This document shows positions 45,801 to 48,800 of a stretch of 64,000 nt of DNA, piece by piece. Numbering within the stretch: the stretch's first letter is position 1; each line of letters begins with the position of its first letter. The DNA lies in NCBI GenBank assembly GCA_965216325.1, contig OZ244160.1, positions 736,001 through 800,000 on the forward strand. Direction: 5' to 3'. Position numbers: made by a program. The DNA is from Coraliomargarita sp. (GTDB lineage Bacteria > Verrucomicrobiota > Verrucomicrobiia > Opitutales > Coraliomargaritaceae).

Positions 45801-48800
45801 GAAGGCCTTTGACGGTTATCGCATCTTGCAACTCACCGATTTGCACGCAGACCTACATCCGGACTTTCCGGCGGCGGTGATTTATGCGCTGAATCAGGTC
45901 GAGTATGACCTTCTGGTGGTGACTGGAGATTTTCGAACCTGCACCTATGGTGACCATAGTGGTGCGAATACCGCAGCGATTGAGATCTTACAGCACGCCA
46001 AGGCCCCAGTGTATGCGACTCTGGGGAATCACGACTTCCTGTGCAAGGTGCCGGAGCTTGAAGCTGCAGGCATTCGCTTTTTACTCAACGAGTCTGCTCG
46101 GATCGAACGCGAAGGAGAGTCACTCTACTTGGTCGGTATCGACGACCCCAACTATTATAAGACACACAACTTCAAGCGAGCGGTTGAGGGCATCCCGACG
46201 GAATCCTTCCGTGTGCTACTCTCACACTCGCCGGAAACCTACCGAGAGGCGATGGACTATGGGATGGATTTGCTCTTGGCGGGCCATACGCACGGCGGGC
46301 AGCTATGTCTACCCGGTGGTCACGTGCTGGTTCATGATTCCAGTTCGCCACGCAGGCTCTTGTCGGGGGCGTGGTCGGAAGGATCCTTAAAAGGCTATAC
46401 CAGTCGAGGCACCGGTGCCACTGGTTTGCCCGTGCGCTTGAATTGTCCCGCAGAAATCACGCTGCATACCTTGCGGCGTGATGAACGAATTAAGTAGGGC
46501 CTTTGCTTGCAAAGTGCCATCACCGACGGGAGCTCATTGTGAGCGGCATTGTGCGCTTCGACAAACTCAGGACCTTGGCCCTGTCAAATGGCGAGGCGTG
46601 CCTGCGCTATCCGCGTGTTTCTGTAGGATGAGACTTGCCTAATCAATAGATTGACTACTAAGTAGTGACACATCGCTTCCTTTCTGCGGCGTATCCTTTC
46701 ACCCAATACATTATTTTTTCTTGAATGCGCATCGACCGGTATATTGCCCGCACACGTGTGATTGATATCCAAAGCACGGATTTCAAAAGTGCATTGGCTG
46801 AACTGTTAGATGTTTGTGATGTTACCAAGGAGAAGGGGTTGACCAAGAATCGCTTGCTTAAGGATCTGCTTGAACGTGAAAAGCAGATGACGACCTATCT
46901 CGGCAATGGCGTCTGCTTACCACACGCACGTGTGCCGATGAAGCGCAACTACATGATTGCGGTCGGTCGCTGTCCGGATGGCCTGCGCTATGATGGTCAG
47001 AAAGAATACCGTGATATTCGCTATGTCTTTCTGCTGCTCGCATCGGAGAACGCGCGCAGCTATCTCTACAGCTTGGCGTCGCTTGCACGGGTTTTTCAGG
47101 ATAAGTCGCACATGGCGCGCTTAGAAGCTGCGCGATCTCTTCCTGAATTTCGTAGGGAATTAAAGGCTGTATTCGGAGGTGAGGCGACGGCGCCTAAGCG
47201 CCAGCATGACCGCTTCAATAACTTGATCCTGAAGGAGGCTGGTAAGATCGCGCAGGGCTCAAATTGCAGTGCGGTTCTTGTCTTTGGCGATACCTTTGGT
47301 GGTGGCATTGAGCTGGGGGATACCTTTAAGGGCTTTAAGACGGTGTTGATTGCGCATGGCACGTCTGAGGTGGTTAGTGAGCGCGAGGATATTGATGCAG
47401 TCTTGCCGATTCGCTCCTTTAGTAATCAGCGCTTCTCGCAATTGCGCAGCGCGGTGCTGATCGGTCTGACGCGTGGCATCTTCTCGAGTTCCGACCGTTT
47501 GCTTTGTGTCGGTGGGATGCCGCAGAGTAACCAGTTCGACAGTATTACCGTGGTCGATGTCGAGCGCGAGTTCAGCACTATGCTCTTCCATAAGAGCGAG
47601 ATGCTGCCATCGTCCGTGAAGCCGGAAGTCATCGAGCGCGTCTTGGCGATTGCCACCGAGCTAGCAGTCGAGGGACGGGAAGGGCACCCGGTCGGCTGCC
47701 TATTTGCGCTGGGTAACTCCGAGAAAATTTCGGAATATACCAAGCCACTGATTTTGAATCCATTTTTTGGATACAAGGACGAAGACCGCAATATCCTGAA
47801 TCCGTTCATGGATGAGACGGTCAAGGAGCTGTCCTCGATTGATGGTGCCTTCATTATTCGTGGAGACGGAGTGTTGATTTCGGCGGGCTCGCTCATTCAT
47901 GCACCGGATTACAATCACAATTTGCCGAGTGGGCTTGGCAGTCGTCACGCCGCAGCCGCATCGATCACCCAGGCGGTGGATTGTCTCTGTGTCGTGGTTT
48001 CCGGTAGCACCGGACAGGTGACGCTATTCCGCCGCGGCGAGATGCTGCCGCTGATTGAGAAGACCCTGGTTCCTACGAGGTAGAGTGGAGGCGTAGCGTG
48101 AAGCTTCAGCAAGCGCTTCACCGAGTATGTGCCTCGCTGCAGTAAGCTTACAACACAGAGGGCGTTTGTTGAAACTGCACGCTAGGAGAGCAAACACTCA
48201 GGCGTCTCGGAGTCAGGCTGCTTCTGCAAAGTGTGAAAGTCTGATATCCGACCTTTACACTTTCCCTCCTTCATACCTTCATACACCACGATGAGCACCT
48301 CGCGAATAGTTAACGCCTTTGCCAAAGCCCGGGAAGAGAACCGTGCCGCCTTCGTCGGCTATCTTTGCGCCGGAGATCCCGATTTGGAGACCTCGGTCCG
48401 TGCCTGTCGTGCGGTGATTGAGTCTGGAGTGGATGTTTTGGAGTTGGGTGTGCCGTTTTCTGACCCTTTGGCCGATGGTATGACTAATCAGTTGGCGGCC
48501 CAGCGTGCGCTTGAGAGCGGCAGCACTAGTGAGCGAGTGTTCGAGCTTGTGCGTGCGATTCGCGAGTTCAGCGAGGTGCCGATTGTGTTCTACACCTACT
48601 ACAATCTGGTGTTTGCCAAGGGCAGTGCCGCCTACGCGGAAGAGGCCAAGGCTGCTGGTGTCGATGGCATGCTGACCCTTGACCTGCCACCGGAAGAGGC
48701 GGGCGATCACCTCGAAGCCTGCGATAAGCACGGCATCGAAACAGTCTTCATCGTTGCACCGACCACACCAGACGAGCGTCTCGAAATCATCTGCAAGGCG

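Follow-up and report, generated by a model that had tools for sequence, protein, structure and literature searches.

How diadenylate cyclases sense signals is a central open question, and c-di-AMP, their product, is both essential and toxic in excess. CdaA (DacA) of the Firmicutes, the sole and essential cyclase of many species, has three transmembrane helices at its N-terminus and is under the control of CdaR and GlmM. The second Glu of its SEETG motif is a metal ligand, and a head-to-head meeting of DAC domains, established for CdaA and DisA, is needed for synthesis of c-di-AMP. DacZ of Haloferax volcanii and CdaZ/DacY of Methanocaldococcus jannaschii are essential, tightly controlled single cyclases in which a PK_C-like (pyruvate-kinase-C-like) N-terminal domain precedes the DAC domain. 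On the side of the phosphotransferase system (PTS), regulators of the MtlR/LicR type bear a C-terminal EIIA(Mtl)-like domain, and phosphorylation by the PTS controls a non-transport output. These regulators are a precedent for an EIIA_2-class fusion, although their output is transcription, they contain PRD domains and they have a cognate permease. PtsN (EIIA-Ntr) of Proteobacteria is a free protein of ~150-160 amino acids that receives phosphate from EI-Ntr, which has a GAF domain, and NPr and that binds partners, in E. coli TrkA among them. It belongs to a permease-less PTS branch tied to K+ homeostasis; unphosphorylated EIIA-Ntr controls K+ transport in E. coli through KdpD, and in Firmicutes K+ uptake is under the control of c-di-AMP (bioRxiv 10.1101/2023.07.05.547876).

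A protein that joins an EIIA domain to a DacZ_P and a DAC domain is already catalogued, although an earlier note on this DNA had found no paper on the architecture. A DacZ_P model exists in Pfam, and proteins of this kind have a JGI product name ('DisA with diadenylate cyclase activity/mannitol/fructose-specific PTS IIA component'). In the 2013 classification of Corrigan and Grundling, class DacD is reportedly the PTS_EIIA_2 plus DAC architecture of Verrucomicrobia. The class was sampled from Lacunisphaera limnophila, a Puniceicoccaceae bacterium, a Coraliomargarita sp., a Verrucomicrobia bacterium and an Opitutae bacterium (Braun, 2019; PMC6741144), i.e., from the same taxa in which the EIIA-DacZ_P-DAC fusion is the only DAC protein, and the passages of that paper dealing with DacD state no function or regulation for it. 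Our literature search, which covered EIIA-DAC fusions, DacZ_P, DacD and c-di-AMP in connection with EIIA-Ntr or with Opitutales, brought up that paper as the only one on DacD and nothing on the fusion itself, and the literature searched yielded no bench work on any member of the family. The novelty is thus lower than the earlier note estimated, and what is new in the present analysis is the census across the order Opitutales and the pattern of conservation that relates EI to the EIIA site.

The gene studied here lies in a window of 64,000 nucleotides from Coraliomargarita sp., at 46725..48083 on the plus strand (stop codon included), and encodes a protein of 452 amino acids. The open reading frame, the Pfam domains and the start Met, which is the same in orthologues ('MRIDRY...'), agree on this description. 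Three domains, all encoded on the plus strand, exceed their Pfam gathering scores: PTS_EIIA_2 (residues 16-147; 46770..47165; E = 1.8e-22, 80.3 bits), DacZ_P (PF21755; residues 163-285; 47211..47579; E = 2.1e-20, 73.1 bits vs. a gathering score of 27.4) and, directly downstream of the latter, the DAC catalytic domain (PF02457; residues 314-439; 47664..48041; E = 2e-20, 73 bits vs. 27), which can be aligned with CdaA structures. An AF2 model presents the protein confidently as a single compact body (pLDDT 92.5, pTM 0.80). DacZ_P is presumed to be a PK_C-like sensor or oligomerisation domain; a PK_C-like fold has been described for the N-termini of DacZ (Braun, 2019; PMC6741144). Judged by its sequence, the protein is a DacZ-clade enzyme in which an N-terminal EIIA domain precedes the PK_C-like DacZ_P domain and the DAC domain. 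Residues 227-441 match positions 56-262 of the 270 in the haloarchaeal DacZ model NF041371 with 113.2 bits, far below the cut-off of 430, so that the two are related but not equivalogs; unlike DacZ and CdaZ/DacY, the cyclase is bacterial, has an EIIA domain and uses the DacZ_P variant. With CdaA it shares the DAC fold and the DGA and RH motifs, but it is soluble and carries EIIA and DacZ_P. The DGA motif (residues 373-375) is encoded at 47841..47849 and Arg407-His408, of the RHR-type motif, at 47943..47948; D373, G374, R407 and H408 are invariant among 91 three-domain sequences.

The EIIA domain belongs to the mannitol/fructose/Ntr class (PF00359) by its score, its phospho-acceptor His and its partner Arg. 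As the earlier note had read, the predicted phospho-acceptor is His67 (codon at 46923..46925) within the motif GNGVCLPH; the partner is Arg51 (46875..46877). In gap-free alignments with the chains of E. coli IIA-Mtl (1a3a) and PtsN (1a6j), Arg51 falls on residues 49 and 57, respectively, and His67 on residues 65 and 73, making the pair equivalent to Arg49/His65 of IIA-Mtl. The closest solved folds are IIA-Ntr 2a0j (TM 0.83, target-normalised), followed by PtsN 3urr, 4gqx and 1a6j. PtsN, which has the same Arg/His site, is thus the best structural match. The description of the system as PTS-Ntr-type is nevertheless imprecise: the protein scores well under the cut-offs of the PtsN/EIIA-Ntr equivalogs (TIGR01419, 39.9 vs. 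138.7 bits; NF008145, 28.5 vs. 221 bits), and, unlike in the PtsN system, the EIIA domain forms part of an enzyme, a GAF domain is missing from EI, and a full HprK/P is present together with an HPr that carries the Ser46 motif.

We searched the genome, a single contig of 3,064,510 bases that is 99.98% complete and in which 24,000 bases are N (C1:1352001-1368000 and 2792001-2800000), with family profiles. PF02457 matched once, at the cyclase gene (76.1 bits), bearing out that this is the only DAC protein. PF00359 matched twice, at the cyclase gene and at C1:122270-122590 on the minus strand. The second carrier, which had likewise been named as the only other one, is a 743-amino-acid protein with Na_H_Exchanger (27-395), TrkA_N (410-493) and PTS_EIIA_2 (638-743) domains and the motif GHGIAIPH; RCK_C (TrkA_C) had no match in it even at E <= 5. 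EI is present (584.4 bits vs. a cut-off of 341.7), and since PEP-utilisers_N stands right at the start of this 586-amino-acid protein, there is no room for a GAF domain. HPr (92.5 bits), with the motifs GIHARPA (His15) and GKSIMG (Ser46), and a full-length HprK with both its N and C domains (201 bits) complete the relay, as previously listed. No match was found to EIIC (PF02378), IIB (PF02302), EIIA-man (PF03610) or EIIA_1 (PF00358) at E <= 0.1, nor to PF03609, PF03611 or PF00367 at E <= 0.01. The absence of a permease that had been claimed thus holds across these seven EIIA/EIIB/EIIC families, with PF03830, PF03613, PF13303, the glucitol families and the 24 kb of N lying outside it, and the EIIB and EIIC (and EIID) partners of a sugar-transporting PTS did not appear in the families searched. 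The genome also has a TrkA-TrkH pair and three further transporters bearing RCK_C; no c-di-AMP riboswitch (RF00379) turned up in it.

This composition recurs across the order. DAC was present in 67 of 71 genomes sampled and had exactly one match, the fusion gene or a remnant of it, in 65, while EI was found in 60 and HPr in 59; the equivalents of His15 and Ser46 were invariant in 21 HPr sequences. EIIC had no match in 70 of the 71. In 49 genomes no EIIA_2 domain other than that of the cyclase was matched, and 42 of these also have EI. The census fits the core of the earlier note's proposal, that a permease-less PEP-dependent relay ends on the cyclase and, in this genome, also on the antiporter, and the decay of Arg51/His67 without EI (below) lends it further weight. 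The antiporter part does not extend order-wide, a second EIIA_2 domain being absent from most of the genomes. At the level of the phylum, the full-length fusion was found in 64 of 301 genomes sampled, and it occurs in Spirochaetota, Kiritimatiellia and Chitinispirillales as well. Among the 91 three-domain sequences, Arg51 is R in 83, His67 is H in 85, and both are present in 77, down to ~26% identity.

To relate the site to the upstream relay, we compared the 64 genomes of the order sample that have a complete cyclase gene; His67 is kept in 56 of them. The R51+H67 pair was intact in 48 of 54 genomes with EI vs. 1 of 10 without it, and the cyclase motifs DGA and RH were kept in all 64, whatever the state of EI. 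The EI-less genomes retained 42-55 of 56 conserved DAC columns. Their R51 was replaced by S, H, K, Q or a gap and their H67 by Y, N or C, and in two (G329 and G350) the EIIA domain was wholly deleted; since the lesions differ, several separate events are suggested. The raw Fisher p of 1.6e-6 ignores kinship and overstates the case, because the association is not phylogenetically independent: EI loss amounts to only two changes on the DacZ_P+DAC gene tree, and an independent-pairs test of EI loss against site loss on that tree comprised two pairs and had no power. Generally faster evolution is a confounder, since 9 of the 10 EI-less genomes are reduced (0.8-1.0 Mb) and weakly grouped together; their DacZ_P domains also lack 2-8 of 19 conserved columns. 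Three genomes (G024, G310 and G325) have EI and an intact site but gave no HPr match. Taken at the level of sequence, the pattern supports control of c-di-AMP synthesis by HPr-dependent phosphorylation of His67.

We consider it most probable (roughly 60%) that a permease-less EI-HPr-HprK/P relay phosphorylates the EIIA domain of the cyclase and so sets the c-di-AMP level. The domain could instead be a phosphorylation-independent module for dimerisation or for binding a ligand or partner, tuning the cyclase without EI and HPr and using His67 structurally. Several observations fit such a module: among the 10 genomes without EI, the domain survives in 8, His67 in five and the full set of 20 conserved EIIA columns in one (G316); the His is absent from 6 of the 91 representatives; and six genomes with EI, including one from the same family as the source genome (G009, R51G), keep the domain having lost R51 or H67, so it can work without the pair. 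We nevertheless regard this explanation as unlikely, though far from negligible, given that the phosphotransfer pair of IIA-Mtl is so much better kept where EI is present and that EI and HPr would otherwise be left without an EIIA_2 acceptor in 42 of the 71 genomes. Still less probable is that the fused EIIA is itself an output, binding and regulating TrkA, sensor kinases and the like as PtsN does, with the fusion merely tethering it or with c-di-AMP synthesis modulating it. E. coli EIIA-Ntr does work by binding partners such as KdpD (bioRxiv 10.1101/2023.07.05.547876), the genome has TrkA-TrkH, and its second EIIA is fused directly to a TrkA_N-bearing antiporter. However, the succession of EIIA, sensor and DAC follows the customary arrangement, with the input domain ahead of the catalytic one, the three domains pack as one body in the AF2 model, and where the PTS is lost EIIA decays or is deleted and DAC stays, as would be expected of an accessory input.

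Two further readings concern the identity of the domains. Source names in public records do call the protein 'PTS sugar transporter subunit IIA', as had been noted, and the NCBIfam fruA domain model matches it weakly (41.8 bits vs. a cut-off of 103.5); yet that it is an EIIA subunit serving a sugar permease is scarcely credible for a protein that carries a complete DAC domain, in a genome where the permease families that were searched for gave no match (24 kb being N) and in an order where EIIC occurs in just 1 of 71 genomes. A catalytically dead DAC domain, or one with a different product, is very improbable too. Such a domain might be suspected from its departures from the CdaA motifs, namely Ala as the third residue of the RHR-type motif (RHA) and SGSTG in place of SEETG, where Ser428 stands at the second Glu. 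Against this, these residues vary little or not at all throughout the DacZ_P-DAC clade (S426 in all 91 sequences, S428 in at least 90%, and the Ala in most of the clade), residues 227-441 match the haloarchaeal DacZ model with 113 bits, DacZ of H. volcanii shows Mn-dependent cyclase activity (Braun, 2019; PMC6741144), and this is the sole DAC protein even in genomes of 0.8 Mb.

A Metallophos gene upstream of the cyclase gene (45517-46497) was considered as a c-di-AMP phosphodiesterase partner and dropped because it adjoins the cyclase in only 1 of 100 related loci, that of a MAG with 97% identity. Downstream, trpA follows the cyclase in 20 of the 100 loci, all from close relatives, and 55 have a nuoA-like gene immediately upstream, a position from which it is absent in the window; neither arrangement suggests a functional link to us. 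Rfam gave no match at E <= 0.1 in 45000-49500, and within 46300-48400 there was no sigma-70-like promoter and terminator-like sites occurred at chance level only.

In the mechanism that we infer for phosphotransfer, for the direction of its effect on the cyclase and for the downstream targets, phosphate would pass from PEP to EI, to His15 of HPr and on to His67 of the cyclase, assisted by Arg51, and phosphorylation of HPr Ser46 by HprK/P would throttle this flow. A complex prediction for EIIA (residues 1-155) with HPr scored 0.02 against a mark of 0.32, which bears neither way on binding. The phosphorylation state of EIIA may then alter the pairing of DacZ_P and DAC domains; since DAC domains need to pair head to head, the c-di-AMP level would be governed by the carbon and energy status of the cell. 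Because the relay here has no sugar transporter, it probably sets c-di-AMP levels, and the transport of K+ and osmolytes would then respond to c-di-AMP, a link from relay to K+ that is our inference. In the source genome and those closely related to it, the relay would further extend to the EIIA domain on the Na+(K+)/H+ exchanger with TrkA_N.

The upstream relay is simple, as EI, HPr and HprK/P face no competition from permeases and most genomes of the order contain no further EIIA_2 domain; since the chemistry of the input (HPr to His) is also known, the hypothesis is directly testable with four purified proteins. If true, it would correct thousands of records that name the protein 'PTS sugar transporter subunit IIA', and would explain the persistence of permease-less PTSs in Verrucomicrobia and spirochaetes. 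Tentatively, and at a little less than even odds, the EI-HPr-HprK/P of Opitutales may be kept mainly to set c-di-AMP, with PEP/pyruvate and glycolytic status written on His67 of the only cyclase, and probably likewise in the Spirochaetota, Kiritimatiellia and Chitinispirillales that bear the fusion. Such a system would be the first in which the PTS is wired directly to a cyclic-dinucleotide messenger, one polypeptide joining both known ties between metabolism and K+, i.e., EIIA-Ntr in Proteobacteria and c-di-AMP in Firmicutes.

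The cyclase is encoded by an open frame at window 46725-48083 (+ strand, 452 aa), and its start Met and approximate length are shared by 19 orthologues from other genomes. A Pfam scan bore out the three-domain composition claimed in the earlier note, with PTS_EIIA_2 (residues 16-147), DacZ_P (163-285) and DAC (314-439) domains each well over the gathering score. The top NCBIfam model was haloarchaeal DacZ (113 bits, residues 227-441), far under the 430 bits set as its equivalog cut-off; scores of ~40 bits with the PtsN and fruA models also fell short of their cut-offs. An AlphaFold2 model based on a 91-sequence alignment was confident overall (pLDDT 92.5, pTM 0.80). 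The solved structures nearest to its EIIA part were of IIA-Ntr/PtsN (2a0j, target-normalised TM 0.83; 3urr; 4gqx; 1a6j), while CdaA was nearest to its DAC part. In ungapped HMMER alignments with E. coli chains, Arg51 and His67 pair with residues 49 and 65 of IIA-Mtl and with 57 and 73 of PtsN, the positions of the catalytic Arg and of the His that is phosphorylated in these proteins. The DAC domain carries DGA (373-375) and R407-H408, and has SGSTG where CdaA has the motif SEETG.

The gene lies 228 nt 3' of one for a 326-aa calcineurin-like phosphoesterase (Metallophos; window 45517-46497, +), which was ruled out as a conserved partner since just one of 100 related loci has it adjacent. In 55 of 100 loci from the order (e.g., L012:4497-4871), the cyclase is immediately preceded, in the same orientation, by a nuoA-like gene (Oxidored_q4, ~125 aa), which is absent from that place in the window. 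Opposite ribBA is a Glu/Arg/Leu-rich, coiled-coil-like ORF of 162 aa (window 43764-44252, +), lacking any Pfam match and shared only with a 97%-identical MAG.

A phylum-wide sample of 301 genomes contained full-length fusions in 64: the window's own, 19 of the 20 further genomes from its family, 41 of 42 from the order's other families, and three elsewhere in the phylum. In the "same class" genomes of this sample, matches were confined to the EIIA part. The best 80 loci in GTDB species genomes had nearly all Opitutales titles, the closest being a Coraliomargarita MAG (97% identical). Opitutales-type cyclase genes also turned up on a contig titled "MAG: Polaribacter sp." (82% identical) and one titled "MAG: Akkermansia muciniphila" (54%); mis-binning or mislabelling of these contigs is probable. 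Among 1.84 billion cluster representatives, a search gave 264 at E<=1e-30; the best 150 comprised 90 three-domain proteins (to ~26% identity), 42 DacZ_P-DAC proteins without EIIA and 18 fragments or other forms. Remote three-domain members came from Spirochaetota (Spirochaeta dissipatitropha, S. lutea, Salinispira pacifica), Kiritimatiellia and Chitinispirillales, and already bear JGI labels of a DisA-type cyclase plus PTS IIA component. Larger proteins of 680-818 aa, with DacZ_P-DAC or all three domains plus extra regions (L031:4980-7436 of genome G223; representatives P0018, P0077 and P0091), are additional architectures of the DacZ_P-DAC clade. A second, partial copy in one relative (G135:C8:21686-22624; query residues 131-440, 30% identical) contains one internal TAG and one internal TAA codon and is possibly a pseudogene.

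The Coraliomargarita sp. genome (one contig, 3.06 Mb, 99.98% complete) was searched throughout save 24 kb in two runs, both distant from every locus treated here. As the earlier note had it, the cyclase is the sole DAC match, and EIIA_2 occurs on only one other protein, a 743-aa Na_H_Exchanger-TrkA_N-EIIA antiporter; this carries GHGIAIPH, and no TrkA_C domain was detected in it. EI, HPr and HprK, also claimed, were all recovered. EI (584 bits, 586 aa) begins directly with PEP-utilisers_N and thus has no GAF domain, HPr contains GIHARPA and GKSIMG, and HprK has both its N and C domains. The hprK gene is directly downstream of lptC/lptA-like and lptB genes (locus L009, C1:96000-115999, 11884-18675), a position behind lpt genes reminiscent of the rpoN-ptsN region of Proteobacteria; beyond it come genes for a hybrid HisKA-receiver protein, shikimate kinase, a GTPase and an Hpt protein. 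The reported absence of EIIB and EIIC held among the permease families searched, four rarer ones lying outside the search: EIIC, IIB, EIIA-man and EIIA_1 had no genomic match at E<=0.1, and mannose-type IIC, ascorbate/galactitol IIC and glucose-type EIIB were found neither here nor in 12 genomes of the family.

Across 71 genomes of the order (about 45 families), 60 have EI and 59 have HPr; in 21 HPr sequences, the equivalents of His15 and Ser46 do not vary. DAC was detected in 67 (exactly one match in 65), and in 49 the cyclase's EIIA_2 match was the only one, 42 of these having EI. EIIC occurred in one genome, where an additional EI-HPr fusion in a 717-aa frame and an EIIA of 150 aa adjoin it (G321:C2:1093730-1097612); this looks like a complete additional sugar PTS. 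Considering these counts, EI, HPr and the cyclase form the minimal system for most of the order, and the antiporter arm is limited to a few lineages of the sample. One member (G189; 99% complete, 8 contigs) has EI, HPr and an unfused EIIA of 185 aa, yielded no DAC domain and may be without c-di-AMP.

We propose, with a probability of roughly 0.6, that phosphate would pass from PEP through EI and HPr His15 to cyclase His67, gated by HprK/P acting on HPr Ser46. The charge on EIIA would then alter DacZ_P/DAC pairing and therefore the rate of c-di-AMP synthesis. For the direction of this effect, unphosphorylated EIIA-Ntr, described as acting on K+ systems (bioRxiv 10.1101/2023.07.05.547876), offers an analogy only. 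That the protein is instead a true sugar-transport subunit is scarcely credible. It is also improbable that the EIIA domain acts on other proteins.

Loss of EI bears on whether EIIA could be a phosphorylation-independent module. EI was absent from 10 of the 64 order genomes with a complete cyclase gene, all reduced (0.8-1.1 Mb), with HPr also missing in eight. Arg51 and His67 were both intact in 48 of the 54 genomes with EI (His67 considered alone, 51) and in one of the ten without (His67 alone, five). The lesions vary among the latter (S, H, K, Q or a gap at 51; Y, N or C at 67). The EIIA domain is wholly deleted in two genomes of one family (0.8-0.9 Mb; cyclases of 304 and 349 aa at G329:C54:24330-25211 and G350:C20:21738-22616), in which neither EI nor HPr was found. 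In all ten, DGA and RH persist, together with 42-55 of the 56 DAC columns that are conserved. This pattern is as expected if the Arg/His site serves to receive PTS phosphate and the cyclase is needed regardless. Since EI loss requires as few as two changes on the DacZ_P+DAC tree, where nine of the ten EI-less genomes group together weakly, and an independent-pairs test of EI loss against site loss had two pairs and no power, the raw Fisher p of 1.6e-6 is not a valid probability. Fast evolution of reduced genomes is a further caveat; conserved DacZ_P columns were lost there too (2-8 of 19). One EI-less genome (G316) retains the site, and six lost Arg51 or His67 despite EI (G009, G317, G332, G304, G337, G192). 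We regard the phosphorylation-independent module as unlikely, yet the most serious competitor. A dead cyclase is very improbable.

On the output side, a c-di-AMP riboswitch was not detected in the genome. A TrkA (two TrkA_N and two TrkA_C domains) adjoins TrkH, and TrkA_C domains also occur on two CitMHS and one Asp-Al_Ex transporters. Going by the knowledge of RCK_C and DHH proteins from other systems, these four are candidate c-di-AMP targets, and a DHH-DHHA1 protein of 332 aa that stands alone is a candidate phosphodiesterase.

DacZ_P is already a Pfam domain; Galperin is said to have defined it, with 22 families, in 2023. The DacD class of Corrigan and Grundling is reportedly drawn as PTS_EIIA_2 plus DAC. 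Their classes are used by Braun et al., 2019 (PMC6741144), whose DacD representatives include Coraliomargarita, Puniceicoccaceae, Opitutae, Lacunisphaera and a Verrucomicrobia bacterium, and a 2026 gut-catalogue paper places InterPro "DacZ" mainly in phylum Verrucomicrobiota. Full-text searches, mostly excluding subscription journals, returned no paper on diadenylate cyclases under PTS control or on c-di-AMP in Opitutales, and no experimental test of a PTS-to-c-di-AMP wire. The cyclase is real and ordinary, a typical member of a catalogued class; it is of interest because of its known input chemistry, the minimal relay and the comparative pattern, which lends support to such a wire being functional.
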